NCBI GenBank assembly: GCA_044892505.1
Contig: CM097882.1
Location: 513,236,001-513,300,000 of the forward strand
Source of the DNA: Schmidtea nova
Taxonomy: Eukaryota
DNA: 64,000 nucleotides
Direction: 5' to 3'
Made by a program: the position numbers and the translations under genes. The notes beneath the pieces are model-generated. The model was not told the origin of the DNA. It worked only from the letters and a program-made list of their open reading frames with translations, and did no database searches. This document shows, piece after piece, positions 13,653 through 61,053 of this stretch (position 1 is its first letter; every line of letters starts with the position of its first letter).

Positions 13653-15904
13653 ACGCTACCTCTTTTAGCGCTGTTTCGTTATAGCGCTTTTTTGATTTTT
13701 TGAAAAAAAATTTATTTTAATTTTAAAATATTTTTTAAAAAGTTTTCTTTTTCTAATTTCATATGAAAATTGATAAAACTTAATTTATAATTCTTGGAAT
13801 CCCTGTTTTTGAAAAGAAAAAGAATATCAAAAATAATTATAATTCGAAGAATCCCAAAATGTGAAATGTTGTATTAAATTGTTCATTTGAAATAGTGATA
13901 TGGTTTTATATAGACCTCAGTAATTTTGATTAAATAAAAAAATTAATTGCTTATAAAAATATGGCAGAGAAAAGAACGGGAGATCCACAGACACATGTTG
14001 CTAAAAATCTAGAAAAAGCCTGAAGTTGGAGATGAAAATGAATGTTATTAGGTGAATTGATAACGGTGAACGACAGTCCGAAGTGTCTTCCAGTCTAGGG
14101 TTGGCTGGATCAACCATAAGAACCATTATTAAAAATACCGATAACATTAAGAAATCCATTTGTACAACAAATTTATTATCTGCCATGAAAGTAAAATGAA
14201 CAAGAAAGACTCAAGTAGAAGAAATGGAGAAATTATTAACATTCTGGATTGATAATCAAACACAGAGAAACAAACCGCTCAACCAGGGCATCATAATGGA
14301 AAAAGCCAAGATATTATATTTAGAGCTTATAAATCGAACTGGAGAAAACTCAACAACGGAGAGTTTTGTTGCAAGCCGAGGCTGATTTGAAAAGTTTAAA
14401 CTACGTGCAAATTTACACAGCATTAGTCTTTCCTGAGAATCTGCCAGTGCCGATAAAGAGTCTGCAGAGGTATTTAAGAAGAGGTTATATGATATTATAA
14501 AGCAGAAGAATTATCCTTGGCAGCTTATTTTCAATTTTGATGAGGCCGGTCTTTTTTGGAAGAAAATGACATCAAAAACATTCATATCCAAAGAAGAAAA
14601 ATCCGCATCAGGTTTTAAAGCCGTGAAAGATCGTTAACCCTAATAATTAGGTGGAAATTCAACTGGAGATTTGAGGATGAAACCGTAACTAATTTACCGC
14701 TCTGAAAATCCCAGGGCAATGAAAGGAATTTCTAAACAATCAATGCTTTGAATGGCAAACAAAAAATCATGGATGACTGCAATTTTATTTAAAAAATGGT
14801 ATCAAGAGCATTTCTGACCTGCTGTAAAATCGTATTGCGAAAAAAATGGATTAGAAAAAAAGCATTGCTGATTCTCGACAATGCTCCTGGACACCCTCAA
14901 AACTTATCAGAATTTCAAACTTGTTTGCCTGTAGAAATTAATTTTACACCTCCAAATACCACATCAATTTTGCAACCGATTGACCAAGGAGTGATTTCAA
15001 CCTCTAAGGCTTATTATATTCGAAAAACTTATAAGCAACCACTTGAAGCAGTTGACAGCAACCAATGTTCCATCAAAGAATTTTGGAAGAAATTTAATAT
15101 CATGAATGCCATAGAAATTATCGGTTCATCATGGAATGAAGCGCAAAAAAGTTGTCTCAAAGGATGTTGGAACTGCTTGCTTATTAAAACGGTTGAAGAT
15201 GAAATAATTGATGAAGTACCACAAGTTATTACTGAAATAACGGAAATAGCAAATGATATTGAATTTGAGGAAGTTGATGATGTGAACATCCAAAAACTAA
15301 TTGAGAGTGATAACAATGGTATCTCCAATGAGGATCTGATTGCTAGTGTATCACAAATTCAGTCAGAAATTGCGGAGCATACGCTAGAAACAGAAGATAT
15401 AACAGAAAATATTTTAACGAAAAAATGTTTGGAACATAATCTAGGGATAATCCAAAATGCCTTAGAAGATTTAAGCGAAAAGGATCCCAATTTTGAAAGG
15501 TCCTGCGCTCTAAAATGAGGAGTAATGAACACTTTATCATCCTACATGGAAATTTTAAAAGAAAAAAGAAAATTATTTAAGCAAGTAAGCTTAGACATGT
15601 TTTTAAAAAAAATAATTAAATATGAATTTACGCCTTTATTTTATGATATGTATTAATATATTTTTTGTTTTTATTGAAATTGTTTTGTTATATTGAATTC
15701 TAATTTATTTTCTAATTTTTAAATGAAGTATAAATGAAATACAAATTTAATTTTAAACTAAAAAAACCATCTTTTTTATTTTTGACTTCAAAGTACCAAA
15801 AAAATTGGTACCATATTTTAGTATAAATAGCTCCTCTTTTAACACTGTTTCTGTTAACGCTCAATTTTCAGGAACGCATTATGAGCGCCAAACGAGGCAT
15901 GCTG
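13653..15904 (+). mobile_element. Tigger/pogo transposon, pseudogenised
   Basis: CENP-B HTH (LGLAGSTIRTIIKN), FVASRG.FEKFK, IFNFDEAGLFWKKM and ALLILDNAPGHP..TTSILQPIDQGVI; degenerate TIRs (cctc.ttt.gcgct) at about 13653 and 15904. Confidence 0.85.
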
Positions 15905-21047: not shown

Positions 21048-22971
21048 TGAATTGTATTACGAGAAGTAATGCAAATGTGTATCTACTTGGATCAATAAAG
21101 GAAACTCTTGCTGGAGCTAAATTGCCTTCCATTGGTGATGTAATGGGTTCTTAATCTGCAAAAACTGCAGACCTGTGCTGAAAGTAAACATGATGCTGCG
21201 TTACAAACAATAATTGAAGTGGAGGAGTTTTGGAATAGAGCACGGATTCCAGTAAGAGCACGTCACCGTGCCGTTAAACAGCTTGAAAAGAAAATGACAA
21301 GGTGGGAAAATCTCAAGAAATGCAAAGGACGCCAATCTACAACACAAACTGCAAATGAAGACGAGCTAAAGCAGACATTCGCTGACCCCTTTGATATTGC
21401 TCATGAAGACGCCTTGGTATTAATTAAAATTGAAGAAGATCGACAGTTTCTGTTAGCTCAAAGAGAAAAAGGACGAATTGGTTCAATGACTAGTGTGGAT
21501 ACGTCTCCAGCGCGGAAAGAAAAGAAAGCTTCTGCAAAACAAGAGAAACGATTAAAATTTGAAAGAAAACAGAAAGAAGAGTGTAATTCATCACAACTCA
21601 AGGCAGCTATTTCTTTAAGCGAGACTAAATCCAATGATGAAGACACTTCAGATTCCATATTTGGAAATGGCAATGGAAGTCAAACCCCTCGGAAGTGTAA
21701 AAGAGGCAGACGAACTGTGTTGACGCCTGAAGTTTTGTCATCTCTTGATCGCACAAAAACCAGCATCCGTTCGGCTGTTCACAATCTGTCAGTAGCTGTC
21801 CAAGCATCTGCATGAGATGTAGCTCGTCTCATGCATCGTTCTGTCACGACAGCTCACGTGAAAGAAAAGTTTGATCCTAAAAAACCACTGGTTTTTCATT
21901 TCGATGGCAAAATACTGAAAGATGTGACAGGAGAGCAGAATGTGGGCCGACTTGTCATAATCGTTTCAGGCTCAGGAACTGAGCAGCTCCTTGCTATTCC
22001 CAGACTGTCAAATGGTAAAGGTAAAGAAATTGCCAATGCTCTAGTAGAATCAGTGACTTCATGGGGTCTACAGGAACGCATCAAAGGTCAATATGGCGCT
22101 GCAAGGAGACATAGCTGAGATGATTCAATTCGGCACCAATCAACTACAAAACGTGCTGCCACGTCATGACTAGATGGAACTCCTTGAATTAGTGATCATC
22201 TTCCTGGGCGGCGTTCCACCACGTGGAGTTCATTTTCTCAAACCTGGAGCTTTGCATCGCGCACGGTTTATGGCGAAGCTGTTGTATTCCTACAAAATAT
22301 TCCTGTTCCGAGACACAAATTTCAAGCTTACGGAATGCGAAAGGAAAAGATTGGCCGAAGTGTGCTTATTTGGGGTGCAAGCGTATGTCAAATCGTGGTT
22401 GTTGTGTTAAGTTCCTTCAATGGCTCCCTCTAACGACTTACAACTGCTGAAGAAGCTGGCTATTCTCAATTCCGTAGCATCAAAATGTGCTCTCAATAAA
22501 TTACTCGGTCATCTCTGGTACTTGAGTGAAGATTTAGTGGCTCTTGCGTTATTTGATCGAGAATTGTGTGTCGAGGAAAAGAAGAGCATGGTGAATGAAC
22601 TGCAAAAGAAAGCTATACCTAATCCCAAGAAACGAATCACGATTAAGAAAGAATACGTCCCTGACCTACAGTTGCACAATTTTGTCACTAGCAATTCTTT
22701 GAAGATATTTAAATTGCTATCATTATCTGAGACCTTCTTGGAAGCTGATCGAATCACTTGGATCATAAGAGAAGATTATTTATATGGCAAAGAAATTGTG
22801 CGACAATTGAGAGTCACAAATGACACAGCAGAGAGAGGAATTGCTATGATTCAAGAATTCAGCGGCTTGCTGACAAAGTACGAGGAACAGACTCAGTTTG
22901 CATTACGTGAGCATCGCAAGAAGTTTCCCAAGTGCAGCAAGAACACTATTTTGCAAAATATGCCCAAATGA
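21048..22971 (+). pseudogene. hATm-family transposase, internally deleted near 22088 and interrupted by stops; right TIR-like gggacactcta ends at 23239
   Basis: FWNRARIP, FDIAHEDAL, LVFHFDGKIL, EQLLAIP, PGALHRARFM, GHLWYLSEDLVALALFD and VTNDTAERGI; the expected FDTT..NTG segment is missing. Confidence 0.8.
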
Positions 22972-26699: not shown

Positions 26700-29600
26700 T
26701 TAAATTTTTTAATCCTTTATAATATAAACTTTATATTATAAAGGATAAAAAAATTAAAACCGCAAAAAATATTGCGGTTTGAGTTTCATTTTAAACCATT
26801 TCATAAACCCTAATTTCAATAAAGAAACATCGGAATCACCAACAATTATTGGTTCAATAATGTTACCGTAAATCAGTGCTGTCCAATTGGCGGCCCATCG
26901 AATCATATTCTGTGGCCCGATTAACAATTTAAAAATTTCTGTACTTGAAAATTATATAACCATTTTTAAAGTTTTCTCTCGTTGAAAATTACAAAAAAAA
27001 CGTTCTTTGCTTGTTTTTAAACCTTTATCAGTTTTAAATATGATCGGTAAATATTAATAATGTTTATTTATTTTCTAATCTAGTTTTCCATGAAACTAGA
27101 CTTACCTATATCTTATTCCGCGGTTATTACATACACATACACAAAGGAAATTAATATCAGACTATTCTGTAGTATTTTTTCCAGTCTAGTATGTAATGAA
27201 ACTAGACACATAAGTGATATATAATTTATTTTTTATCACATTTAGAATTTCTAAACGCGTTTTGCTTTTTAATTTTTTTTCTTGTGCAATTATTTATGCT
27301 TAGCATACACATCAAATCAGGTAAGTGCATATAGAAAATTAAGTATATAAATTTAAATTTTTGATGTTTTCCTCTTATTATTTCTAGTAGACTTATTATT
27401 CAACTATTTTGGAAGTGCAAAAAGCATAAAATCTTGTCCAAAAACAGGAAGAAGTATATTTTTGTATATTTAATATAATTGCATCAAAATAACCGTTTCA
27501 TTATTTAAAATTTACAGATTAATAATAGTAACCGTCAGAAAATGAGTATAAAAAAACTACGAATAAAAATCAGGATTTTAAAGAACAATGTTCATGATAC
27601 AGAAAGAAAATTGTGTATGTTTGATATGCCTGATAAATACTATTATATGTAAAGAATATAATTTGAAGTGTCATTATCAATCCCAGTATGAAGAGAAATA
27701 TTCGCATTACACTGGTGAGTCGAGTATCGTCATAATTGAAAATTTAAAAAACAATTTAAGGGGTAAGCATCTTTTATCACCTTCAAAAGTAAGGCTCAGG
27801 ATGTATCTGTATCTGCTTCTTATGCAGTTGCAGAAGAAAAAAATAAGCCAAAAAGATTCTTGCTTATGGTTAAATTATTAAGAAGTGTGCAATCAAAATG
27901 GCTCAAGCATTTAAAGAGGAGAAAATGACAAAACAATTCGAGTCAATTTATCTGCCTCGTCAAACCGTTGCGAGACAAATTTTAAATATAGACAACTTTT
28001 TAGTTGAAAAATTAGCAGATATAATAAAAAATTGTATATATTTTTTAATTGCTCTTGATGAAAACATTGACATATACCATACCAGTCAAATTCTGATTTT
28101 TATAGGGACAGTGGATGCAGTTTTTAATGTTTCGGAGGAGTTACTGAAATTGGCTTCCCTACATTCAACAACAAAAGGTGTATATATTCATGAGGAACTC
28201 AAAAATGTTGTGTGCATGTATGATGGTTTTGAAAAATGCACTGCCATTGTAACTGATGAAGCAAAATCAATGTTTTGGAAAAATATAGGACTCGCTGGAC
28301 TGCTAGAACAAAATGGGAGTAATTGTCTATTTTGCACTGCATTATTCACCAGCAAGCTCTATGTGAAAACAATATGGCATTAAGTTGCACGATGACTACT
28401 GTTATGAAAATAACAAATGCAATAATAGACGGAAACCGAGCAATCACTATCGTAAATTTAAAGAATATTTAGAAAAACTTGATTCCGAATATGCTGACCT
28501 ACTTTTACATAGTCAAGTTCACTGGTTAAGCGCAGGAAAATTCCTTAAAATGTTTTTTTCAACTTCGTAAAGAAATTAAACTTTTTCTTATGTAAATAGA
28601 ATTGGATTCATCAGTTATTATTAATGAAATTTTTTTTATTTCATTAGCATTTTTAGCAGATATTACCGAATATTTGAATATTTTGAAAAAAAACTTTCAA
28701 AACAAAGACCAAAAAATAAGTCACCTAGCACACCATATCATTGGATTTCGCAATAAGCCAAGTTTGCTTCGGTCGCATTCGATCAATAACAACTTGGTGC
28801 ACTTCAGATGTGTCAATGAACTTGATCTCAAAACACATGAAATCGGTTGATTGAAAATTTTGATGCCAAATTTTCTGATTTCGACGTAATTCATCGACGT
28901 TGAAGAAACCGATATTAAATATCAAATGGAACTATGTGAATTGCAAGCAGACTAATTTTTTTAATCAAGGCCGGAGTTTGGTGTACACTTATTGAAAAAG
29001 TTTCCAAAAGAAAAAATATATTAGAAATTGCGCAATTTGGGCGTAAAATTAATTTCTATGGTTGGCAGTACATATATTTGCGAATGAAAAGATTTTGTAG
29101 CTGCTAATATAAATACACTGTTTTCTCATTAATAAATATGTTAATAATTTTTTTCTTTACGCTTTCTTAATTGCTTGAACTAATAAAATACTAGAAAAAT
29201 GTTATTAAATGGCTTTTATTTTAAAATTTTAAGTATTGTGGCCCGCAAAACATACAAACAAAATGGCCAACACATTCTGAGAAGTTGGACAGTACTGCTG
29301 TAAATGAACATTTGTTGATAACGTTTAATTATTGCCGGTTTTGCTACACCTTCATTAATTTGTCCATTTTTAAAATTTACTTGTTTCGATAAGCAAAATG
29401 TTTTTTACAAAATTTGGATCAAATAAGTTGGAATTTAAAGAATTTATCTTTTGTAGTTCGATGATAGTCCACAATTATTTGTTAGATCCGTTATGTATAA
29501 TTCATCCTTTAATGTAAAAAACAGATACTTAATTAGACAAGAGATTAAATCGGAAGAATAAGCAACATATATTTGCAATTTTGTTTCTTCAAATGTATTA

Positions 29601-37913: not shown

Positions 37914-38645
37914 TGTTTGTACTATTAAGATCAAAACTGGATGATTGATAATCTTAACACAGCTGACTCCAATTATCAATAAAACTGTCTTTTATAAATA
38001 ATAATATGAAATATTATAATTTATATTTAGTCGGTTGCTAGTTCTTATATAAATAACTGAAACAAAGACAATTACTTTTTCTAATGTTTAATGAATAATC
38101 AAATTTACAAAATTGTTGGGCCCAGCGAATCGCAAATAACCTAAAAGAAAGAATAAATTAAATAGAAAAATAGGAATATAGGAATAGGCGTATGACTTCA
38201 CCGAGCGATGTCTAATGACGAGTGGTGTCAAGCTAGCATGGTTGACTGATTAAATGCGATGTTTATGTGAATGACCAAGGTATGGACGAAATAGAATGCC
38301 TCAACGCCAGGGTATATATTCTGTAAACCATTTTAAATCGATCATTTTTCACAGTTTGAATGTCAATCAGAAAAGCAAAAATGGACAATCATGGTAATAA
38401 ACGCAAGATAGCAAGGGAAACTAAGAAGCATCAAGAGGCCGAAAGGATCGATCGACGCCTCACGACAAAACTTCCCTCCGATGTCCGGGCGAAAGTACTG
38501 CGTCATCTACGCCATTGGAGGCGTGAATTTAACCAACCACTTATATTTTCCAAATGTCAGAAACTCATGTTTAAAGTTCGCTGGGAGGGAGATAAGTCAA
38601 CAGCCAGAGTCGAAACGCAGGAACCGGGATTGGTGCTGTTCAACA
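37914..38645 (+). mobile_element. Truncated LTR-like segment (LTR-C) carrying ORF-X
   Basis: Starts TGTTTG, A-rich U3, TATA at about 38312, CAG acceptor at 38354 and ATG at 38360; same layout as LTR-D. Confidence 0.5.
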
Positions 38646-38650
38646 TTTGA
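38360..38650 (+). CDS. ORF-X, LTR-borne protein of unknown function, 3'-truncated
   Basis: RHLRHWRR-x18-RWEGD..TQEPG matches the ORF at 43204-43848. Confidence 0.6.
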   Translation: MSIRKAKMDNHGNKRKIARETKKHQEAERIDRRLTTKLPSDVRAKVLRHLRHWRREFNQPLIFSKCQKLMFKVRWEGDKSTARVETQEPGLVLFNI

Positions 38651-39182
38651 AACTTTCCTTATTAAATCAATATCATTAAACTCAATTACACAAATTGTTT
38701 CTTTCAAACATTTATTAATACCATTTAAAAAGATATCGATTATCAGATTTTTAACATTGTTATTGTCAACTGAGTTTACTCCAAATGCCTTTTTTGCTAC
38801 TGAAATTAATTCATACCCATAATCAAGAACAGGTTCAACATATTTTTGTTTTCTTTCATAAAAGTTTCTTCTCAATTCTTTTAACTTCTTCGCATACTAA
38901 TTTATCTTCCAACGCATCATTTAATTTTGTCCACTCATTTCCAATTTTCTTTTTGTCAATCATACACCATGCATCACGAGAAACTCCAGTTAAATATAAC
39001 GGAAATCTCTGTATAATTTTTGGCTCTGCCCACCCATAAATTGCAGCATACATATGATATTCATTCATAAAATTGAAAAATGAAAATGGATCTCCTCTGT
39101 ATTGATCTTTCGGTAATCTTTGAGAACTGGCAACATCATAGCATTCTTTGTCAACATAAACTAATAAATCTTCACTATTCAT
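38646..39182 (-). pseudogene. Ty3/gypsy gag (capsid) with a frameshift near 38870, truncated
   Basis: Follows the PBS; YAAIYGW..RFPLYLTGVSRDAW..LEDKL and RKQ..EPVLDYGYEL..DIFLNGI resemble the retrotransposon gag domain. Confidence 0.8.
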
Positions 39183-39388
39183 TATGGATTATCTTTAGTC
39201 TGACCTCATAAATTCATTATAAATACATTTCAATAAATTATTTTCTCAAATCGCACAAAATCTAAATTTCAAAATTATAACTACAATCAATAATTTACCT
39301 TGTCACTATTTCTATGAATCTCTTTATCACAATTTATTTTCACTCCTTGTTCAATAAATTTTTATCCGATAACTCTCCACCAACTTTG

Positions 39389-39406
39389 ATCACGTCGGGC
39401 TCACCA
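39389..39406 (-). promoter_or_regulatory. Primer binding site, tRNA-Trp
   Basis: TGGTGAGCCCGACGTGAT is a 17/18 match to the tRNA-Trp PBS TGGTGACCCCGACGTGAT, 5 nt after the LTR end ...CAACA at 39412. Confidence 0.9.
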
Positions 39407-39571
39407 AAATATGTTGTGTTATTATGTCGTTGGTAAAACTTAAGTTTAACAAATTATTCCTGACTCCAAGCGTGTTTTTAATTGACCCCCAAATAACAAA
39501 TAACAATTGACAGTAGGAAACTTTATTGAATATCATAAATATTTTCACAGTGATACAATTGACTCAACAAT

Positions 39572-40072
39572 CTAACTGATTGTTTCTGATAATTTAAAAT
39601 TTGTGGCAAGTGTTGCCGTTAAGATAATTCGTGCACTCCTCCAGAATTTCGAATCAGAAAGGCTTGATATTCTGCCATCGTTGCTTGTCAAATGATACAT
39701 ATAAACTAAGGATTTAATAGTCCACTTTTCGATATTCTTTTGTATGATTTCGATTTGACTCATATTCAAAACTCTCGGTTGAACCCATTTTACCATCAAT
39801 TTCTCATTGACTTCATCGGCATCGGCTTCAACAGGTTTCGTTGTTGCTGCTGTCTTGACTTGACGAAATGCTTTCTTTTCTTCCTCGGAGAACGATTTGA
39901 TATGATTAAACCATCTTAAAGCATGGAAATAGAAGTCTTTAATTGACGAACATGCTTGAAACACTCCAACATCAGCAGTAAATTGATAATATCCATTAGC
40001 ATGGTTTTCATTGAACATATAATCGTTCAATTTTAATTGACCGATATCGATTTTAAGATTACCAAATTCCAT
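39572..40072 (-). CDS. ORF-Y, intact 166-aa ORF of unknown origin inside LTR-B
   Basis: ATG to TAG uninterrupted, protein-like composition; the stop codon lies in the R-like repeat. Confidence 0.55.
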   Translation of the reverse strand: MEFGNLKIDIGQLKLNDYMFNENHANGYYQFTADVGVFQACSSIKDFYFHALRWFNHIKSFSEEEKKAFRQVKTAATTKPVEADADEVNEKLMVKWVQPRVLNMSQIEIIQKNIEKWTIKSLVYMYHLTSNDGRISSLSDSKFWRSARIILTATLATNFKLSETIS

Positions 40073-40337
40073 ATTTTCAAATTTAAATCAAATTAAGAAA
40101 CTTTAATAATTCTTTATTCCTTCAAAAAATTCACAAAATTCGAAACCAAATAATTCTTGAATAAGTCCGATAAAACAAGAGAATAGATCCCAAAAGGTTC
40201 CAATTAATAAGTCCAAGCACAAAAATCAAATTCGACTCCAATTGAAAAATTAATCCAATACAAATCAAAAAATTAAATCCAAAATTAAAAATCAACTCCA
40301 ATTAAAATTAAAAAATGATCCGACAAAACAAAAGAAT

Positions 40338-40990
40338 TCATTCCAAATATTTTGATAGATTTTGATAGCATAAACGGTGAATAGTTATTAACGAATCGAA
40401 TTCCATAATGCTTGTTAACCCATTTCTTTTAAATCTTCTGATAATTCCTTCCAGAGATTCGTAGAGAGATTTATTAATACGATATGAAATTAATTTGCAG
40501 AGATCAAATGATCTTCCAAGTAACTGCAAATGCCGTTGTTTCATTAGTTACGTAGCGCTCTGGTGGTGGATTACTGATATTACTTTTGGAGGAGTTATTG
40601 ACTTGATTTTTAAACCGCTTATTAAGTAGCATGGATGAAGCAAATTGTTTATAAAGAATAAATATCTGATCACTGAGTCTCACCACTAATTGTGACATCA
40701 TAAAGTTAACTTCTGCTTCTATTTCGTTGTAAAGAAATTGTCGCTTAAACTTTTTAAGAGCACAAACAGCGGAATCATTGTATAAATCAAGAGGATACAA
40801 TAAATATTCGATGTAAGCCGGATCTTGAGTATCTAATATGTGATTGGTTAGAATGCACGGTATTGAAGTTTCAATGGGAAATTGGATTCTTTGTCCGTTT
40901 GTCATTTCTAAAAGGAATTCTCGATACCACAATTGTGATAAATCGCAGGAAATTGAAAGTGTATTTTTGAAATTATTATTTGAAATTGGC
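40338..40990 (-). pseudogene. CYFIP: Captured intron-free CYFIP/Sra-1 (cytoplasmic FMR1-interacting protein) internal fragment with one frameshift near 40540
   Basis: CDLSQLWYREFLLEMT.GQRIQFPIE, LYPLDLYNDSA, KRQFLYNEIEAEVN and KQRHLQLLGRSFDL match conserved CYFIP1/2 sequence. Confidence 0.93.
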
Positions 40991-41267
40991 CAAAAAGGTT
41001 ATCAATATTGAATATCACAAATATTTTCACAATGATACAATTGACTCAATCTAACTGATCATTATGCAATGCTTATTGCAACACTGTTGTGAGGAATAGC
41101 ACTCGCGTATAATCTTGATTCGAAATATTACTCACTATTGAAGAAGGTAACAATTGGTAATTAAACTGGTTGTTTTCTGGGTTTGACTTAGATTTACTTG
41201 CTGAGCTTTACTCGGTTTTCCTTTATTTCTGATATATTATTTCGTCGGATTTCCTTTGAATTATTTT

Positions 41268-41537
41268 CTAAACTTCTCTTCTAACTTTCTCCGGCTTCAC
41301 AAAATCTTTCAATTTCTCCGATAAATTGAATACTGTCTTCAACCGTCTATCGTAAATGTTGTCTACTATTCTCTCGTAATTTTTCTCTCGCCAAATGTTC
41401 TGTCTCCCTCTGCTGAGTTTCCTCTTTTTATATCTCGTCACTTTGTGGCACTTAAGTTTATCTCTAATTTTCCATTTTTCTCCCAGCATAATTTCCCGAC
41501 TTTTTTCTACAACGAAGTTATCTCTGACAGCTGTCAA
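41268..41537 (-). CDS. Small U3-encoded ORF (ORF-W), basic, unknown function
   Basis: 89 aa; NIYDRRLKT resembles RTYERKLKA in the decayed frame of LTR-A. Confidence 0.35.
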   Translation of the reverse strand: MTAVRDNFVVEKSREIMLGEKWKIRDKLKCHKVTRYKKRKLSRGRQNIWREKNYERIVDNIYDRRLKTVFNLSEKLKDFVKPEKVRREV

Positions 41538-41959
41538 GATATTCTCTGTTTTTTCTTTTTGCCGCTCCGGCCTGTTTTATTTTTGTTCGCGTTATCTCTG
41601 AATAGCAGTCGAGATAAGTATATTGCTGTTGTTTCTGTTTTTCCCGGTTCTGAAATTCCTTTTCCTTTTGTACTAATTAATTAGTGCTGACCTTTGTTTT
41701 TGTTTACTTGTCTGATTTCTTTTGTCGGATTCCTCTTTCTCATTTCTTTTTGTTTCCGTTTTCTTTTCCGAGTTCCCATTAACCGTCTCTTTTGTCATGA
41801 CGATTTTCCCACCAGGTAATTTTATTTATTTATTCATAAATTTGTTGTTTAGGTATCCTCAACAATTATAATGAATTTAACAAATGACTTCTTGGTAACC
41901 GCCAAGCAATTATTTGAAGAATCGAAGAGATTTTGCTCAATGAAATCGATATAAAAAAT

Positions 41960-42160
41960 AGTAAGTTGAACTTTTTCTTACATACAAAAACTCAAGAAGA
42001 AAAAGGAAATGTTGGTTATTCCGGCGTGAAGACATTTTAGTCATATTTATAGCTTGTGCTGGTGTGTTGGTTAGATGGACAACTGAGATCATTAAGATTT
42101 TATATGTTAGGGTGATCTCGCCAACATAAAAACATTCCCCCGCTGACACCCATGATGTAT
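41960..42160 (+). pseudogene. Degraded gypsy integrase zinc-binding region
   Basis: GNVGYSGVKTF ... SRQHKNIPPLTP resembles the H2C2 region. Confidence 0.4.
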
Positions 42161-42443
42161 CCCTAACTACTCATCATGTTGGTGCTGTGTTAACGTTGTG
42201 AAATGACAAGGCAGGTGAGCAACCTTGCGGCTACTATTCCCTTGTTTATTCACGGGTCCACCACTACCGATAGAAGGTGTTTGTGGATTTCTTTCGGTCC
42301 CACTCATGCTCTTTCCTTTTGTCCTAGGGTAATTTAATTTTAATGTATCTGCAGCTTTAAATGAATCCGGGTTTTAGTTACATTCAATCCTCAAATGTTC
42401 CGCAAACAAACAAGACAAGTCAAATCATTCGTTTACAATGCAT

Positions 42444-43008
42444 TTATTTATAATTTAACAACACCGAAGGTCTAATTACATTCAGCAATTCCTGCTCGGA
42501 GAGTCCACTGAGCAGATCCACTTCTATGTCTAGGCGGTCAGCATATGCCCGTCTCTCCCTACGCTTCTTCGCTCCGAGGCGATTCCTTCGTTTTGTCCTT
42601 TGCGACCCTTGTGGTATGGTTGTGGTCACTTCGGTAGCCGTGGTTACGATTATTTCTTTTTCGGTTTGCGTACTCGTAGTTGCTGATGTCGAATTTATCC
42701 ATTTGTTGAAGGTGCTCGCTCTAATCACTGGGCGCAATTGCTCAGTGATGAAATCTTGGGTCGACACCCTTAAGTAATTTGCCAGCTCTAATTTCATGGC
42801 TGCGACCTCTCTCGCTTGTTCGTCGACCGTTTGTTCAGCTCTGTATCGAGCTTGTAAAATGGCTTTAACCCTCTCAGGATTAAACCATGTCGTTTTGATC
42901 CTTTGGTGTTCCTCGCTTAACTGTCGTAAGCGGCTCTCGAGGACTCGGGAACGTGCCTTTTGTTCTCTTGCCTCTTTTTGTAATTTCTGTTGGGAGTCGT
43001 GTCCATAC
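42444..43008 (-). CDS. ORF-Z: coiled-coil/basic protein exon (about 187 codons) preceded by a strong splice acceptor
   Basis: CTAAC branch point and CTTTTACAG at 43009; frame open 43007-42444 (QKLQKEAREQKARSRVLESRLRQLSEEHQR ... KRRNRLGAKKRRERR). Confidence 0.55.
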
Positions 43009-43203
43009 CTGTAAAAGGTGACATTATTTAGGTTAGGGGAATTTGTCCGGTTTCCTAGTCACGATATTATTATCAAACAATCGTACATTTCCTTCATATT
43101 GTTCTCACACATTCGAAAAACCAAAACAAAATTCTTTCGAAAACAAATACATTTATTTTTATATTCACAATGGGTATTTGGATCGTTCACTCCGGATGAG
43201 TGT

Positions 43204-43848
43204 TCATCTTGATTGACTGAATAGTCGGATCTCCTGGTCGGCTTGGTTCTCGTCCCTGCGGATTCCGTTTTCATGGTACAGCTCTGGGGCTGGGCTCCAA
43301 CCTAACTTATCTCGATAGATGAACCCCTCCCAGAGGCGAAGGTCCTTGGGCTCCGGATATTGATCTAAGGAGACACTTCCTGGCGCATTTGAGTAGATTA
43401 AGACTTCCCCAGTGTCGCCACACCGAGGCCTGTCTAGCAGCACGTACCCGAGTTGGTGCAGGGCATGACCAGTTATTATATCGGTGCTCAACAGCCAGCG
43501 GGGCTGATTCGTGTCGTCTACGAATTGGTAGAACCATCGGCCCGGCTGCGTTTTGATGGAGTTCGAGGAGGACATCCAATTTGCGTCTCCTTCCCACCTC
43601 AGTTGTAACCTAAACGCGCACGCTGGGATGCGGGCGCCTATGCTCAGGTGATTCCTTGTCCATCGGCGCAGATGTCGGCGCGCTAATTCTGTAGTTCGGC
43701 GCGGAGCTTCCTCTTCGCCTTCGATTATAGAGTTCACTTTCGTCATGACGACGGAGCGGGTGCGCCGTTTCTTTCGGATGATACAATCTTCTAGTTTCAC
43801 GGGTAGGAATTCCACTGGCCTCCATCTACTGTTTTCTATTTTGACCAT
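43204..43848 (-). CDS. ORF-X homologue (about 214 aa from ATG 43848), unknown function
   Basis: Intact frame; RHLRRWTR-x18-RWEGD..KTQPG is shared with 38360-38650. Confidence 0.7.
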   Translation of the reverse strand: MVKIENSRWRPVEFLPVKLEDCIIRKKRRTRSVVMTKVNSIIEGEEEAPRRTTELARRHLRRWTRNHLSIGARIPACAFRLQLRWEGDANWMSSSNSIKTQPGRWFYQFVDDTNQPRWLLSTDIITGHALHQLGYVLLDRPRCGDTGEVLIYSNAPGSVSLDQYPEPKDLRLWEGFIYRDKLGWSPAPELYHENGIRRDENQADQEIRLFSQSR

Positions 43849-45074
43849 ACTACTCTGAAGAAAGATGACCAGAATTAATTGATGAACCTTACGGTTGATC
43901 ATCTCTATATATACTACCTGGCCCACTAAACTTGTCGATCTATTTTCTGTAGGCCTCTGCAAATCATTCTCATTTCACCCAGCGAGTGACGGTGAAGTAT
44001 TGTAGGCCGCTATCACCGATTTGTTGGCGAGCTAATCTACTCCGCATTTTTACCCCGATGATTTTTTTGTTATACCTAATTCACTTTTTGTTGTTTATGA
44101 CATCAATTTTAGATTTATTATTTATCATTTCACTCACGCTCAATTTATTTTTGTTATTTATGATTATTTTATATTTATTAGTTGTCACGCATACTCGTTT
44201 CCTCAACAAACTTTTATTAATTCACCCCACAATTGACTAACAATGATCATACTACTATGGGAATGTCAAGAATCCCTCACTCTATCTGATTTAGTAATCC
44301 GTGTATTATCGACACCTATTATAGGTGCTTGCCTCTCATATTCCTCGGGGTTTAGGTGCATACGCTGGAAGGTATAATTGATTTATTACCACCCCCTGAC
44401 ACTGGTGCTCTTGCCTAGACTAGTATGACTTATGCTTTGCCTACCCCTGTTCTCGTTCACCCTAGGTTTCTCAGCACTGATGTTACTTGTTACACATACG
44501 TATCCCTCGTCTAGAGATATCGCCATGATATATATCATTCATATGCGACTATCTTTCCTTTGATTGACTCTATGATTGCTCATTCACATGAGTCTATCTT
44601 TGCTTTAATTTACACTCACTAGATTTCACTCGATACCCTATGTGCACTTATTCCCCTTCCGCTTACCAAATATTTAGTAAACCTATGGTCCCGCCGCATC
44701 AGCACCTCACATGAAAATGTGTTGCGCTGAGAGGCCAAGAATCCGTCAGGCTGTTAGGCCTCCGGAAAACCTTATTGATTTTAGCATGATTATGAGGGTT
44801 TAAATCGATTAACAAATAGAACTCAACCATACCTGTATTTAGATTCCAATCGGATTTACAATGTTGTCACGATAAGTTCACACTCAGTTACACTTGGTAA
44901 AAATGACAGTTTTTAAATGACTGCCTTATACTGATTTACCTACAGTATTTATACTAAACCGGTGTTGTTGGTTAGCCAATCAGCATCGAGTATGTGTGTC
45001 TGTTTGTTCATTTTTTATGTTGTCGGCTTTTTGCTGCCTAACTTAACTCACTGATTTATTTGTTTAATCATGCG

Positions 45075-45321
45075 GTAAGTTTTCTTTGTCATCAATTTAT
45101 TTTATTTTGTTTTTGTTTTAGGTCTTCGGTGACGTCCGCCCACGCTCTGTCATATTCAGATTTTATCTGCTTCGCATGAGTGAGTTTTGAAGATTTATTT
45201 TGTTTTGATTAATACTTTATTTCTTTTAGATGTTGCCGCTTATTTGCTACTTTTTATGCTGGTAATTTATTTTATTGTTATTTTGTGTAGCTTTATTTTA
45301 TTGATTGCATATTATTTTCAG
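45075..45321 (+). other. Three consecutive GT-AG mini-introns with 58-nt and 32-nt exons
   Basis: Introns 45075-45121 (GTAAGT), 45180-45229 (GTGAGT) and 45262-45321 (GTAATT), all T-rich and ending TAG or CAG. Confidence 0.6.
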
Positions 45322-45339
45322 ATGCTGCTCGATTTGGCT

Positions 45340-46088
45340 GGCCCAACACTTGAAAGACGAAGTTGAAAAAGTTTCAAACTTTGAAACACAACCCAATGTT
45401 TGCGTTTATAACGAATGCAAATGTAATTGATGAGACTAATTTAGATAACAATATTTTGAGTTCCTTGAAATCACCAATTTTAGTTTAGAGCCGATTGATT
45501 TAAGAAGTTCAACTTAATAGACTGATAAATATAAAACTTTACGTGGTGATTTAGAGAAAACCGAAGACAATTTTCTTGATATGATATCTACGTGCTGGGC
45601 ATTCACTCTAACAAAATTCACATTTATCAAAAGTTGCATTTGCTCTTTTATCAGCGTTTGGCTCAAGCTATAATTATGAACAAACATTTTCACAAATGTA
45701 ATATATTTTAAATAAAAACAGTACTTTTTTAGTACTGAGCATTCTAATTAATGTGTTACACTTAAAATGATTAAATATGAACCAGTCTTATATAAATTAA
45801 CTTCAACAGTACAGCATCATAGTAGCCATTGATTTCACCTACTGATAGTTGTTTAAAAGGTTAAAATATTAAATGTTGGTTTTGTTGTTTTTTGATTTAT
45901 TTTTACTATTGTTTACTGAATTTATCACATTTATGCTTATATAAAATTTATTTAACTGGATAATAAATGAATTAACTTTTGGTTAACCTATTTTTTTTAA
46001 ATTGCCACTGACCTACTATGAGTTTTAAAAAAATCTCTCTTAGGCGAATTTTACCCACGACCAAAAAGGTCTTCCGACCTCAGGTCTA
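45340..46088 (+). mobile_element. hAT (Charlie-type) 3' fragment with right terminus
   Basis: ALLSAFGSSYNYEQTFSQM and Q-HHSSH* remnants; terminus aaaaaggtcttccgacctcaggtcta. Confidence 0.65.
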
Positions 46089-47158: not shown

Positions 47159-49683
47159 TAAGGATGTTAATATCGTTTTTTGGCAAACTGATTATCATTT
47201 TTATTGTCATAGAAAAATATAATTATTTGTATTCAGGGCTCTTTGAGTAGTTTACCGCTTGACTGAGCAGTAAATCGGCTACATGAGTAAAAAATATTCG
47301 TATAATAAAAAAAAGTAAGTCAATGAAAAGTTTCGAAAATCCAAAACAACTTTATATATCAAACAAGTCTTGATTTTTGTTAAAAAAGGAACGATTCTGC
47401 GTGTTCTGGAAGGAGCCGGTTACGTAGTTTACTTATCAAACGCCCAGTAGCTGAAAACAGCCTCTTGGATTGCACTGACGTCACCGGAATACACAAGAAT
47501 CTCCTAGCTAAATTAGCTGTTTTTGGGAACAACTTTTCATTTTGTTTCCACCACTCCAGTGCTGTTTCTGTTGCAGTTGTCGTCCATGGCGATTTGATGT
47601 AATATTCAAAGTCTGACTCTTCCATCGCCTGCTGTGACGCACTATCACCCATCAGAAACATAACTGCTGCATGATTTGGTCGAGATCGTTATGTTGTCAG
47701 TTCAGACTTGGCACTAGTCGATGGCGGTTCAGAGGCCGGCATTTGCCTGGTAAGATGACGGACATTATCATACGCAAGTTTCTTGAACTTGTCGTCACAT
47801 CCGGGAAGATGTTTGTACCTTGGATCGAGAATTGATGCAACGACGCATACATTAGTTGCTAAAAAAACGTAGCGAAATATTCTCAGCAACATCTTTCTTG
47901 AAATCTCCCACAATTGTCAAATCTTCTTGAATGCTTAGAAGATTATAGATGAGACCCCATAACATTGGAAAAACACAAGAGGCTGATGGTTGACTTACGG
48001 CTGACACGATTGAAGTCACGATCTGCAATGCTTGCAATACCGGAAGTAGTTCAGTAATCAGTTGCAAATTGTCATCCTTTATTTCCAATGTTTTGGCATC
48101 GTTCAATTTCATCATGTTTCTGTCAGAAAGTACTGCCACAACTAGTCATCTCAGTACTAAGAGACGTTTGAACATGTAATATACGCTACGCTGTCCCAGC
48201 GGGTTTTGCAGTACTGAATCAGTTTGAGCGATGTCTTGTCTTTGTCCATGGACACATGTCATTTCATCAGATCACCCACTGCCATTGGGCTATGTGAAAA
48301 ATGTCCAACCAAACGTGATGCAGCAGATATACACTTGGAAATCGGATTATTAATGATAGCGTATGTGTCCATTGCACTATTAATACATATTTGAAAATTT
48401 ATGCGCCGCACAGTTGACGTCAAGCCACCCATTCAGGTTACCAGCTTCTTTTACATTGGATGCATGCAACAACTTTACTTTTGATTGATCATTCATCAGC
48501 AACACATCCCAGAGTTTCAGCGATGACGACTTGCGTGTGGCGCTCATTCGTCAGAACTGTGGCAAGAACAGGCGTTTTCATAGTCCAGTCTGGATCAATG
48601 TAGCTTGCGGTGAAGCTTAGATAAGCTTCATTAATGATACTCGTCCAGATATCGGTGGTGACAGCTATGTCTTTGACATTTGTTTCAATGTGTGTAAACA
48701 TCTTCTCCATAAGCTGCTTCTTCATTCCTGTCATTTGTGATGTCATCATCTGACGACATGGAGGTTTGTATTGTGGTTCTATCAATTCCATCAAAGCACG
48801 GAAGGATGGTGATTCCACGATCGAAATTGATAGCATATTCTCAGCGATAAATTTGGCTAAAGCAGCGGTAATTTTCTACTGCTGACTGTCAGGGCAGTTT
48901 CGTTGTGTTCCAGTGAATGCTGTAACTCGCGGCTGAACATTTGAGGGAGCCGCTAATCCAGGATGCATGGTACGCAAGTGCGCATGTAAACCAGTTGTAG
49001 CGCCACCGCTGCGACCTATTTGTTGCAAACATAGTTTAAAACGCGCCATTGTAGACGAAACTTTTTCAAAGTTGTCCCACACATCAGATTTATTAATACG
49101 ACCAGCCATATTTGTAAATTGAAAGTTTTTATTTTAAAATTGTTTAATGTTGTACTGATGACTGACTACAACTAATGTACTCAACGAGCGAATATATCAT
49201 ATAATAATAACTGGACTAGAGAATGCGGTCATATAATAGATTTAGCTTTTTTAATACTAAGTGATTGTCCAATATCTAGTATCTTGAGTATTATGAGTGG
49301 GAGTATTTTTGACAATATTCTGTGACTATTGGATCTGGGTCATCCACTGTCTCACATTCTGCAGCTGACAGTCTATTTCTTAGAATTCGACCCAATTAAC
49401 TTGCCGCGGGCGACTTATCCTAATAGTAGACTGTGGGAGATAACTAAGCTGTCAACTTGTCACCGTTAGGGCACAGCGAATAAATATGTACTAGTTACAG
49501 AATGTTGAGAAATTCTCGCTAACAGCTTTATTCCTTAAAATTGAGAAACGCAGCAGACGATGTCTTTAAACCATAAAATTATACAGCAATAACAAAAATT
49601 TGATTATCGTTTGTTAAATTCAAGAACCGATTTTCGTTTTAGAAACCGATAATCGGATTTCCGATTATCATTTAACAACCCTA
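47159..49683 (-). mobile_element. Complete-ended hAT (ZBED1/Ac-like), transposase frameshifted
   Basis: TIRs taaggatgttaa / ttaacaacccta; TSD atctttaa / ctctttaa; BED finger (VWDNF..HLRTMH), AVTTDIWTS, CAAH, CKTRWDS, ASILDPRYK and IPVTSVQSKRLFS. Confidence 0.93.
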
Positions 49684-53399: not shown

Positions 53400-54760
53400 T
53401 TATAAACAATAACACAATATTTCGGCACAGCCTTTATCAAGTGTGTATTTCAATCGTTAATCCTAAATAGTAACCTTAATTATATTTTTAATATTTTATA
53501 AAGATTTTATTGGATGAAAAAAAAATTATTTTAATTTTTTTGTGCGAATTGGATGTTGATAGACGGTTTGTATTTTTTTATGTAAAAAGTCTCAGAAGCT
53601 AATCTTTGTAATGAATTTTTGTATCCCTCTTGTAGAATCTGGCATTTTGTTTCTTCTATAGATGGAGTTGTTTTATGTACTTTTTCCCAATGTTCGTAAT
53701 AATTACTAGTTTTGTTTTTAGTGTTTTCATTAAGTCGGGTGCGAAAAGTTCTATGTGTTTCTCCTATGTAAGTAGCGTCACATTTTTGACAAGAAAGTTT
53801 ATATACTATATTTTTGGAAAAGCAAAAGCATCGGGTTGTGTAACGGCAAAGACATTTATGTTTGGAGATGTTGGAAATTGGTGGCTTTCGGAGTTGTGAT
53901 CTTACGGTGCGGAGGTTATGAACGTTGGACGGATGTGGATATTTATTTATAATTCAACTAAATAATGTGTGTATTTACTTTTTTCGCGCGGTAATTGATT
54001 GATTAAAACAGTCAAATTTTAATTTCAATTATATTTCCATTCCAATCTCTGTTATTTTTCCGATATTTTAATGGGGACTTCTTCTATAATTTTTAATAAA
54101 TTATTCTCTTTATTTTAATACCAATTTTATTCTTTGACCATGCTTTTTATTAGCAATGATCTTTCCCATTCAATTCTCGCGCGGTCTTTTGTATGTAAAT
54201 TTGATCTGCACTCAAATTGTGTGCTCACTTTTGAGATGCATCTTTTTTTATCGTTTTCTCATACTTCGATCAACTTTTGGAATGCGGTTAGTAGACTTAC
54301 TATTTGCGCTTTAATATTTTATATACTTTGGTGCTATTTTCCTGTTTAATGCTCTTATGGATGATCGTGCAATTTAAACTATTTTTTAAAGTATTTTTTT
54401 TAAAGTATTTTTTAATTTTTGACGTATTAAAACAAAAATTAATCCTCACTTTTACCAACGCAACAAGAATCTACGAGCGAATGTGGTCAGATATGTAATC
54501 TATTATCGTTAATTCCCAACAACGTTTCAGTTCCATCTTCGTTGCTTGCATTTTTGTCTCTAACTCATTAATAGTTCGGAGCGCCCGTTCTAAACTTCTA
54601 TGAAGGTTCTTTATCTGACATGGCGCTAGGCAAGTGTTCTGTAACCCCTCAAGCCTACGTTTCAATTCCCTATTTGATTTTTCATCCCAAACTTCCCGTT
54701 GTCTAGAGTTTTACAGTTGCTAATCTTTTTACCGTTTAATTTCGGCGCCATTAGATAAAA
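53400..54760 (-). mobile_element. Penelope-like element lacking RT (N-terminal domain joined to GIY-YIG)
   Basis: N-terminal RLEGLQNTCL..SLERALRTINELE; C-terminal KCLCRYTTRCFCFSKNIVYKLSCQKCDATYIGETHRTFRTRLNE..KPSINIQ. Confidence 0.75.
53412..53444 (-). ncRNA. Minimal type-I hammerhead ribozyme candidate (U3-A8 core variant)
   Basis: ACAC-TTGATAA-A-GGC-TGT-GCC-GAAA-TAT-T-GTGT, just 3' of a Penelope GIY-YIG region. Confidence 0.55.
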
Positions 54761-60158: not shown

Positions 60159-60756
60159 TAGAAATTCAAAACACTCACCTGTGTGTTATCGGTGTGCTAA
60201 CATTCATTGACATCCTTTATTATGTGGTAGACAAAAAGGATAGAAAAATTTTGTAAACCACAAAAAGGCATTATATAGTAAAAACTGCATGCAAACTTTT
60301 AATGGGTGCAAATCTAATCAATCACTAACATCCCATAATAAATCTTACGCACACAAAAAAGTTGATATTTTCTTCATTTTAATTATTTTTTTATCGATTT
60401 TTAAAATGAAATTAAAAGCAAAATCATTGAAAAAAAATATATTTCAAGAGGGCATATTGTAAGATGTCTTTTTCATTTAAAAATTAAATAAATTTTTTAT
60501 AGCAAATCTGATAATTCTGAAGGCTCCAAGTTAAGCTTTCGGGAAAATGACCAGCCAAATTTGTAAAAATTATTTTTTTATTATAAAAATAATAAAATTT
60601 TGATAGCAATTCTGATATTTCTGAAGGCTCCACGTTAAGCTTTCGGGAAAATGACCAGCTAAATTTGTAAATATTATAATTTTTAATATATCATTAAATC
60701 AAAATTTTTATAGAATATCATTTAATGAAGGGCAATCAAGTTCTACAAGGCTTGGT

Positions 60757-61053
60757 TTGGAGAGAAAAACTAGAAAAAAAGCTGACAAAGTCAAAATCGT
60801 GAATGCCATGGAAAATGGGGAGGATTATTTTCAATTTGGTAGACTGTTAGGAATTACTAAAAACACAATAAAAGCAATAGTAATTAAGTATAAAAAATTT
60901 GGCTTTATATCAAAAGGGAAAATCGGTGGCAGCAAATCAAAGATTTCCGAAGAAAATGGAAACAAACTGTTAGATTATGTAGAAAAAAAATTATTTTTCA
61001 AATCTAACAGAAATAAAAAATTACTTAAATACACAAAACTGTTCGAGTTTTGA
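60757..61053 (+). CDS. Truncated transposase DNA-binding (paired-like HTH) ORF
   Basis: GRLLGITKNTIKAIVIKYKKFG..KGKIGGSK. Confidence 0.65.
   Translation: MERKTRKKADKVKIVNAMENGEDYFQFGRLLGITKNTIKAIVIKYKKFGFISKGKIGGSKSKISEENGNKLLDYVEKKLFFKSNRNKKLLKYTKLFEF

Follow-up and report, generated by a model that had tools for sequence, protein, structure and literature searches.

Two putative genes under selection inside the long terminal repeats of giant Burro-type Ty3/gypsy elements in the planarian Schmidtea nova

The DNA analysed here (the window) is a 64,000-nucleotide stretch of Schmidtea nova contig CM097882.1 (assembly GCA_044892505.1, positions 513,236,001 to 513,300,000), numbered from its first letter. 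On its minus strand, the repeat at 42057-45348 is a solo LTR of a Burro-type Ty3/gypsy element, the Burro-type assignment resting on size, gene order and cargo as set against the published description. This LTR is 3,292 bp long, runs from TG to CA, has edges that coincide with the repeat edges in 19 other loci, and is flanked by a 4-bp target-site duplication (left copy 42053-42056, right copy 45349-45352). A sequence-only reading of this DNA had placed an LTR at 42177-44208; that interval is indeed repeated, but it is the inner part of the longer LTR and both of its proposed ends were wrong. Consequently the minus-strand frame at 43204-43848 (ORF-A, 214 aa, open) starts 1,500 bp inside the LTR, rather than the 300-400 bp that had been suggested. 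Downstream of it, at 42444-43006 on the same strand, lies a further LTR gene, ORF-B (acceptor 43009, ATG 43006), the window copy of which is frameshifted near codon 11.

Whole elements carrying these LTRs are 24-30 kb long and have an env-like gene of the mononegavirus type. LTR direct repeats enclose interiors with gag/pol domains in all three pairs fetched; two LTR pairs span 24.5 and 29.4 kb, numerous others are spaced about 26 kb apart, and the LTRs of one element pair are 99.4% identical. Duplications of 4 bp were found at the window LTR, at nine solo loci (two with common flanks), at two of the three pairs and at 4/7 divergent loci. A few bases past the 5' LTR, all three pairs have a conserved G-rich 18-mer, a candidate primer-binding site that may be of the tRNA-Pro kind. 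In the interior, a PF24664 fusion glycoprotein (E 1.6e-52) lies upstream of RVP, RVT_1, RNase H and rve domains, and the cargo includes RING, TRAF zinc finger, MATH and ankyrin domains. A further candidate LTR pair, L111/L112, was rejected as a segmental duplicate.

These properties can be set beside those of the Burro elements (GYPSM1/Burro1-4), giant planarian Ty3/gypsy elements described as longer than 30 kb with interiors of up to 25 kb (PMC6431247). The likeness extends to the 24-30 kb size, a CCHC-knuckle Gag, a mononegavirus-type fusion glycoprotein between Gag and protease, the PR-RT-RH-IN order, and the ankyrin, RING and TRAF/MATH cargo (PMC6431247). In contrast, the two measured spans fall slightly below the published size, MATH is here encoded downstream of pol by an ORF of its own, BIR and BCL2-like domains had no match among the 20 interior ORFs scanned, and genes inside the LTR are not mentioned in the text of section 7 of PMC6431247.

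Both frames named by the sequence-only reading exist as it gave them (38360-38650 on the plus strand and 43848-43204 on the minus strand), and sequence comparison places both in one family, ORF-A, which that reading had called ORF-X and of which 43204-43848 is the second copy. Its recognition of a shared RHLRxWxR, an 18-residue spacer and RWEGD was sound: the two frames match each other in pairwise BLASTP (E 1e-4), both motifs are absent from 30 shuffles of the window, and a profile of 40 further copies, constructed with both window ORFs and their nearest relatives left out, gives the two frames scores of 71 and 91 bits but no score to either sequence in reverse. The spacer is 18 residues long in all 36 scorable rows (49 family rows in all). 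TQxPG, also put forward as shared, is a coincidence, found in 1/49 family rows; 43204-43848 has TQPG, and the TQEPG of the 38360 ORF lies past a frameshift, outside the family frame. As had been noticed, there is no significant similarity between the DNA of the two pieces (best E 0.06), while protein identity of about 25% persists across LTRs without DNA similarity; the first nine bases of the two window LTRs are identical. The window copy of 214 aa is basic at its N-terminus and is predicted to form an alpha/beta domain. The family has 5,177 first-look candidates genome-wide, and its dN/dS is 0.16-0.38 over 21 pairs, which are not independent, with upper bootstrap limits of at most 0.60. This agrees with the earlier proposal of an LTR-resident accessory gene under selection, as does the presence of ORF-A in both LTRs of full elements with its duplication at both element ends.

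What stands at 38360-38650 on the plus strand is no short gene but a remnant marked by deletion and a frameshift. A divergent LTR of the family contributes its 5' terminus (38114-38178, plus strand, 94-96% identical to the termini of LTRs bearing ORF-A and ORF-B), which abuts ORF-proximal sequence, about 1.2 kb having been lost, including promoter and donor, and no promoter pattern is left in this LTR; it is because of this loss that the frame starts just 246 bp inside. The ORF-A remnant (38360-38633), preceded by an acceptor that ends at 38354, keeps the family frame until RWEGD (about 38593), is then frameshifted, and ends at a junction with another repeat. Its dN/dS against its three nearest relatives is 0.33-0.53, one interval including 1.

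The sequence-only reading, right about ORF-A, had pictured an LTR with one gene and missed ORF-B, which lies downstream of ORF-A at 55 of the 63 distinct places where the latter occurs. Among the best 150 ORF-B matches 138 are free of stops, and dN/dS is 0.05-0.32 over 15 non-independent pairs (upper bootstrap limits at most 0.60). The protein has a long N-terminal coiled coil (a helix predicted for residues 2-102, pLDDT 82-98), then a TQT motif (26/36 rows) and a disordered linker, then a bZIP-like basic region; its C-terminal helix is leucine-rich. The TQT motif is presumably an LC8-binding motif, and LC8-family genes give 61 matches in the host. In the basic region, Asn is found in 21/21 rows, Gly at +4 in 18/21, Ala at +5 in 20/21 and Arg at +9 in 16/21, a spacing of Asn, Ala and Arg that matches host bZIP basic regions. 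Among weak matches the most frequent is Pfam bZIP_1 (7/44 rows, best E 7e-4), its best score of 20.1 bits lying below the gathering score of 27.6 bits, and with a profile of the ORF-B tail only one of ten host bZIP stretches scored above the best of 500 shuffles. Leucine heptads were not found from +19 on (+19 is mostly Gly and +26 mostly Ser), and the model breaks the helix where a zipper would follow the basic region. Zipper-less or viral bZIP-like proteins include SKN-1, EBV Zta and HTLV-1 HBZ; ORF-B resembles Fos/ATF-type bZIPs in the residues of its basic region but differs in having no heptad zipper and in placing its coiled coil at the other end, beyond the TQT motif and linker. The arginine-rich helix may equally serve RNA binding or as a nuclear localisation signal.

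Upstream of both frames, an inverted CCAAT box (44981-44976) and a TATA box (44953-44946) form a putative core promoter (44946-44981, minus strand), about 400 bp from the LTR 5' end. Of 23 LTRs, 20 have the pair, whereas in 200 shuffles it turned up in 2.0 on average and in 6 at most; from its position we infer a transcription start near 44920. There follows a poly(A)-signal-like hexamer and then a splice donor (44831-44839, minus strand, intron starting at 44832). This combination is shared by 18/23 LTRs, while the shuffles, again 200, gave an average of 0.03. ORF-A begins some 1 kb downstream of promoter and donor. The TATA boxes that the sequence-only reading had taken as promoters just before the ORFs are TATA-like words distinct from the conserved promoter, and we rejected the ORF-proximal TATA as the main promoter; a second such word about 60 nt before ORF-A in the young subfamily counts against this. 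From the donor to the ORF-A acceptor runs a putative intron 1 of 978 nt (43855-44832, minus strand), in which two short motifs, near 44731 and 44700, are conserved; the motif about 130 nt into the intron occurs in 22/23 LTRs with one mismatch allowed, a count that has no shuffle control.

The YAG acceptor noted earlier before each ATG is real and conserved: a YAG within 16 nt of the start is present in 15/16 ORF-A and 14/14 ORF-B copies, against 32% of all ATGs. In one copy, L086, the intron is missing and the leader is joined to ORF-A exactly at donor and acceptor. This loss, a single event seen in three duplicated loci, proves splicing, not the start site, and could also have arisen in the copy at the 3' end of the RNA; L107 was rejected as another intron-less copy. 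A second poly(A) signal (42443-42448, minus strand) sits on the stop codon of ORF-B and precedes a T/G-rich stretch. The canonical hexamer is found there in 22/40 family loci, again a count with no shuffle control, and other loci have, by eye, mostly one-letter variants. Four sequencing runs are DNA-like and cover the non-repeat flanks; among them, the 15 of 43 joints listed include no leader-to-ORF junction and are uninformative about expression.

Searches for homologs returned nothing for ORF-A, by single sequence or by alignment, or for ORF-B, by alignment, among proteins of near length. In a full HMMER scan the ORF-A alignment had a single weak match, a 348-aa frame that we rejected as repeat-like; the ESM Atlas gave nothing for either protein, Pfam gave no family common to the ORF-A rows, and sequences in the PDB gave no match. 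Fold searches with the ORF-A model (mean pLDDT 68) reached a best Z of 3.5 and no Foldseek match at E <= 0.001, a result that speaks neither for a new fold nor for its absence. Against viral folds ORF-B stayed at chance level, the best being rhabdovirus phosphoproteins (E 0.58 and 3.9).

Here, we propose that ORF-A and ORF-B are real, selected and spliced LTR genes, a conclusion we hold with high confidence. That their frames are by-products of conserved LTR sequence might be argued from the lack of a homolog in any protein collection, but change biased to third positions, dN/dS far below 1, conserved acceptors, the intron loss and the protein identity retained without DNA similarity largely refute it, and we regard it as extremely improbable. 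The LTR of giant Burro-type elements would then be a small two-gene transcription unit, in which the promoter produces a short non-coding leader, a single donor is spliced either to the ORF-A or to the ORF-B acceptor, and either mRNA can be terminated by the poly(A) signal that sits on the stop of ORF-B; that the start site and the poly(A) signals are used in this way we infer. Since promoter, signal/donor and acceptors are conserved in this order, with the putative start site upstream of both ORFs, both genes most likely lie in R/U5, between start site and primer-binding site, and not in U3, and would be copied into both LTRs and into every solo LTR.

What might the two proteins do? Our preferred answer, which we offer tentatively and with somewhat less than even confidence, is that they are early regulators of the element: ORF-B would dimerise through its coiled coil, probably clamped by host LC8 at the TQT motif, and its bZIP-like basic helix would bind DNA, most likely that of its own LTR, setting element transcription. 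The lack of a leucine zipper and bZIP scores that all fall below the cut-off argue against this role for ORF-B. ORF-A could be a co-expressed nuclear partner or a second regulator, a role that is a guess given its lack of any sequence or fold match. The fullest form of this model, an autonomous, alternatively spliced two-gene early unit that encodes a zipper-less, LC8-clamped bZIP-like regulator and a new-fold protein and is supplied in trans from solo LTRs, we consider doubtful.

The same arginine-rich helix might instead bind the genomic RNA in the manner of Rev or Rex, serving read-through, export or dynein-linked transport. Such an RNA has to retain the introns of both LTRs and be read past two poly(A) signals within the 5' LTR, the short motif of intron 1 is widely conserved, ORF-B has its leucine-rich C-terminal helix, and the donor overlaps a poly(A) signal; in foamy viruses, U1 at the LTR donor is described as suppressing 5' polyadenylation (PMC3694450). 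The invariant Asn, Ala and Arg at the spacing of bZIP DNA contacts argue against this reading, which we think unlikely. Proteins directed at the host, with ORF-B mimicking or blocking AP-1/CREB-type factors or soaking up LC8 and so tuning stress or cell-death responses, would suit the RING, TRAF zinc finger, MATH and ankyrin cargo, the many host LC8 genes, the YAG-before-ATG layout that four interior accessory ORFs share with ORF-A and ORF-B, and a second-hand report that Burro1 protects stem cells through an IAP-like region (PMC13465017). Location in the LTR, together with conservation throughout the sampled subfamilies, points instead to a core function in replication, and apart from the short basic region neither protein is similar to a host gene; this reading we judge rather unlikely. 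A selfish or structural module, such as a toxin-antidote pair or particle-associated proteins, appears quite improbable: the tight ORF-A/ORF-B linkage, the non-significant phosphoprotein fold matches and the mononegavirus-type env favour it, but no toxin fold was found, the ORF-B fold matches are at chance level, and most older copies contain stops, so that solo LTRs are not kept intact.

MMTV sag, HIV/SIV nef and foamy bel2/bet overlap the LTR in U3, upstream of the start site. Early regulators encoded in R/U5 would share with these an accessory ORF in LTR sequence that is reached through splicing, but the analogy to sag and nef drawn by the sequence-only reading points in the wrong direction, as ORF-A and ORF-B lie downstream of the conserved promoter and of the putative start site. 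Here two whole genes with introns stand between promoter and primer-binding site, and they have no sequence similarity to these retroviral genes. To our knowledge, no retroviral gene lies on this side of the promoter. The foamy virus LTR is also alike in that a splice donor adjoins a poly(A) signal (PMC3694450), but its donor lies upstream of the signal, whereas in the LTRs described here the order is reversed, with the donor within 1-2 nt of the preceding hexamer.

Solo LTRs are usually viewed as non-coding promoter relics. With both ORFs inside the LTR, any end repeat left behind could act as a small gene unit, and a very abundant LTR family holds two selected genes. In addition to two new protein families, our findings offer a model of splicing, polyadenylation and transcription control in a 25-30 kb env-bearing element, and make ORF-A and ORF-B candidate effectors for an element class already reported to affect planarian stem cells; the LTR unit may regulate the element or the host. 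If an early unit does reside in R/U5, reverse transcription would have to begin with a product of about 2.9 kb, and the many solo LTRs with open frames could serve in trans as sources of regulators for the whole family, perhaps also for host genes. As a caution, reads that map to LTRs in these genomes, and RNAi probes directed at them, may hit mRNAs.

Here, we find that the LTRs of Burro-type elements, the giant Ty3/gypsy elements of planarians, carry a conserved, selected and spliced two-gene cassette. The sequence-only reading had described one LTR-encoded gene; the feature is real but larger than was seen, as the LTR carries two genes, ORF-A and, 3' of it, ORF-B. The stretch 42177-44208, taken earlier for an LTR, is repeated, but these are not its limits, since similarity continues to 42057 and 45348. 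This 3,292-bp copy (42057-45348), with a TG start, a CA end and a 4-bp flanking duplication, is a solo LTR, a single LTR without an element interior. Such 4-bp duplications (all read by eye) also surround nine solo loci and two of the three paired elements examined. The three LTR pairs fetched span 24.5 kb, 29.4 kb and, in a third with other insertions inside, a longer distance, and one pair is 99.4% identical. Young LTR subfamilies (L009, L011, L018, L019 and L020) appear mosaic against the window copy, with parts of ORF-A near-identical, other parts strongly different, and the middle of intron 1 unalignable.

Both frames that led to this family are present, ORF1 at 38360-38650 (+, 96 aa) and the window ORF-A at 43848-43204 (-, 214 aa). 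Among the motifs said to unite them, RHLRxWxR, an 18-residue spacer and RWEGD are common to both (BLASTP E 1e-4), but TQxPG is not: TQ(x)PG occurs in one of 49 family rows, and in ORF1 it lies past a frameshift just after RWEGD. Thirty shuffles of the window produced neither RHLRxWxR nor RWEGD, the spacer has 18 residues in all 36 scorable rows of the 49-row ORF-A alignment, and a profile built from 40 other copies gave ORF1 71 bits and the window ORF-A 91 bits but gave their reversed sequences no score; the two frames are therefore homologous. The ORF1 locus is a divergent LTR of the ORF-A/ORF-B type, with a 65-bp terminus fused to the ORF-proximal part and promoter and donor absent, and the final codons of ORF1 derive from another repeat that starts at 38634. 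This piece of an abundant repeat (38634-39398), whose junction cuts ORF1, extends further in other copies, making the junction one of deletion or recombination; its minus-strand frame at 38856-39188 is Gag-like by eye, with no Pfam match. Divergent ORF-A members, about 25% identical to the window ORF-A, sit in LTRs 2.8-3.5 kb long that share these end words and are likewise flanked by 4-bp duplications (4/7 loci in one set).

The window ORF-B runs on the minus strand from an ATG at 43006 to a stop at 42444 and is frameshifted near codon 11. Of the 63 distinct ORF-A places, 55 have ORF-B downstream, and some of those lacking it are short loci or insertions. Genome searches returned 1,224 first-look candidates for ORF1, 5,177 for a central ORF-A member and 9,567 for ORF-B, figures that are not copy numbers; all 150 candidates scored for each query matched. 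At 54408-54686 (-), a sequence distantly similar to the ORF-B coiled coil (E 5e-7), with neither ORF-A nor family LTR ends nearby, may represent another LTR family that is still more remote.

Selection on an LTR-encoded protein, as suggested earlier, extends to both genes. Nei-Gojobori dN/dS is 0.16-0.38 for ORF-A (21 pairs of 7 young-family copies) and 0.05-0.32 for ORF-B (15 pairs of 6 copies), with upper bootstrap limits of at most 0.60; the pairs are non-independent, and those with L121, saturated at synonymous sites, were left out. ORF1 against three near relatives gave 0.33-0.53, one interval including 1. ORF-B is free of stops in 138 of its best 150 matches whereas most older ORF-A copies contain them, which argues for selection during replication and not on inserted copies.

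Signals for expression were scored in 23 LTRs, chosen solely for having the 5' end within the locus retrieved. Twenty of them have an inverted CCAAT box with a TATA box 27-30 nt away (shuffles: mean 2.0, maximum 6), about 325-410 nt from the LTR end with one exception, and 90-140 nt beyond, in 18 of 23, an AATAAA-like hexamer is followed directly by a GTA donor (shuffles: mean 0.03); 16 of these 18 have an ATG-free leader, the non-coding stretch from promoter to donor. The YAG acceptor noted before the ATG holds for both genes, ending at most 16 nt upstream in 15/16 ORF-A and 14/14 ORF-B copies against 756/2,351 background ATGs, among copies selected for a clear start and with one ORF-A reference set one codon off. 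A second poly(A) signal lies on the ORF-B stop (canonical in 22/40, counted without shuffles), and a TATA-like word near ORF-A is confined to some subfamilies, with a (TA)n run in one. Most telling is L086 (942-1944), in which LTR end, promoter and leader continue straight into ORF-A; at this joint a GT donor begins at the identical base in three relatives, and two relatives enter at the identical base from a pyrimidine-rich CAG. This is a precise intron loss, a single event present at three duplicated loci (L086, L087 and L088, spaced 26-28 kb and interrupted by a second family LTR). It shows that element RNA is spliced; L086 alone does not fix the start site.

In the window copy, we infer that transcription starts near 44920, that the first intron (44832-43855) is 978 nt long and that a second acceptor, at 43009, is used alternatively. 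ORF-A and ORF-B would therefore be placed downstream of the start site and upstream of the primer-binding site, most likely in R/U5, so that some 2.9 kb would be reverse-transcribed before the first strand jump; R would end at either the first or the second poly(A) signal. Two short intron 1 motifs, near 44731 and 44700 (-), are kept across divergent LTRs (10/23 and 22/23, with mismatches allowed and no shuffle control) and are candidate cis-elements.

What might the two proteins do? Searches of protein collections, the ESM Atlas and PDB sequences found no homologs of either, and ORF-A has no shared Pfam family. The model of ORF-A (mean pLDDT 68) combines a long helix bearing RHLRxWxR and a beta-rich domain with an N-terminus that is basic and poorly ordered, and its fold search gave no match (best Z 3.5). 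ORF-B comprises a 100-residue helix (pLDDT 82-98), a TQT motif (26/36 rows), which we take to be LC8-binding, a disordered linker and a basic helix, where Asn is present in 21/21, Ala at +5 in 20/21 and Arg at +9 in 16/21. Host contig C2 holds several clusters of near-identical LC8/dynein light chain matches, about 20 in all and free of interruptions. The commonest weak Pfam match to ORF-B is bZIP_1 (7/44 rows), its top score of 20.1 bits falling below the cut-off of 27.6. Against this, ORF-B lacks a zipper, and its tail profile raised only one of ten host bZIP stretches above shuffles. ORF-B is not a bZIP member, although its action may resemble that of a bZIP basic region.

The likeliest reading, held tentatively, is that the cassette would be the element's early regulatory unit, with ORF-B as a putative dimer that binds DNA and regulates the LTR. 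A less probable account is Rev/Rex-like control of the genomic RNA, which would keep its introns. Foamy viruses offer a precedent for control of a poly(A) site in the LTR by a splice donor, as one study reports (PMC3694450). That ORF-A and ORF-B are host-directed effectors is slightly less probable again, a selfish or structural module is improbable, and that these selected frames are non-genes is very hard to credit. To return to the early regulatory unit, its setting is an element whose anatomy matches that of Burro (PMC6431247). Interiors encode Gag with CCHC knuckles, protease, RT, RNase H, integrase and a Monjiviricetes-type fusion glycoprotein (E 1.6e-52), with further ankyrin-repeat, RING and TRAF/MATH frames; the BIR and BCL2-like motifs described for Burro, however, were not found in the interior ORFs scanned. 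Judged from the element alone, the host is probably a planarian. Searches of article text turned up no description of genes within Burro LTRs; figures, supplements or repeat-database entries may already draw such ORFs. A YAG also stands only a few nucleotides ahead of the first ATG in interior accessory ORFs (a RING protein and unknown proteins of 396 and 176 aa; L066:5978-6445, L074:5458-5928, L068:1396-2583 and L068:2654-3181), and a single leader may therefore serve many spliced mRNAs.

Elsewhere in the window, decayed frames of DNA transposons or other mobile elements lie at 5737-6800, 11471-11812, 14793-15518, 21144-22971, 27582-28383, 47380-49133, 53531-53953 and 60655-61053; three of the eight are confirmed by hAT dimerisation, GIY-YIG and HTH/paired-like matches, and the rest were judged by eye. 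Amid repeat fragments at 40504-40998 (-), a 164-aa frame matching CYFIP/FragX_IP (E 2.5e-61) is an exon of the host or else a gene fragment that was captured.
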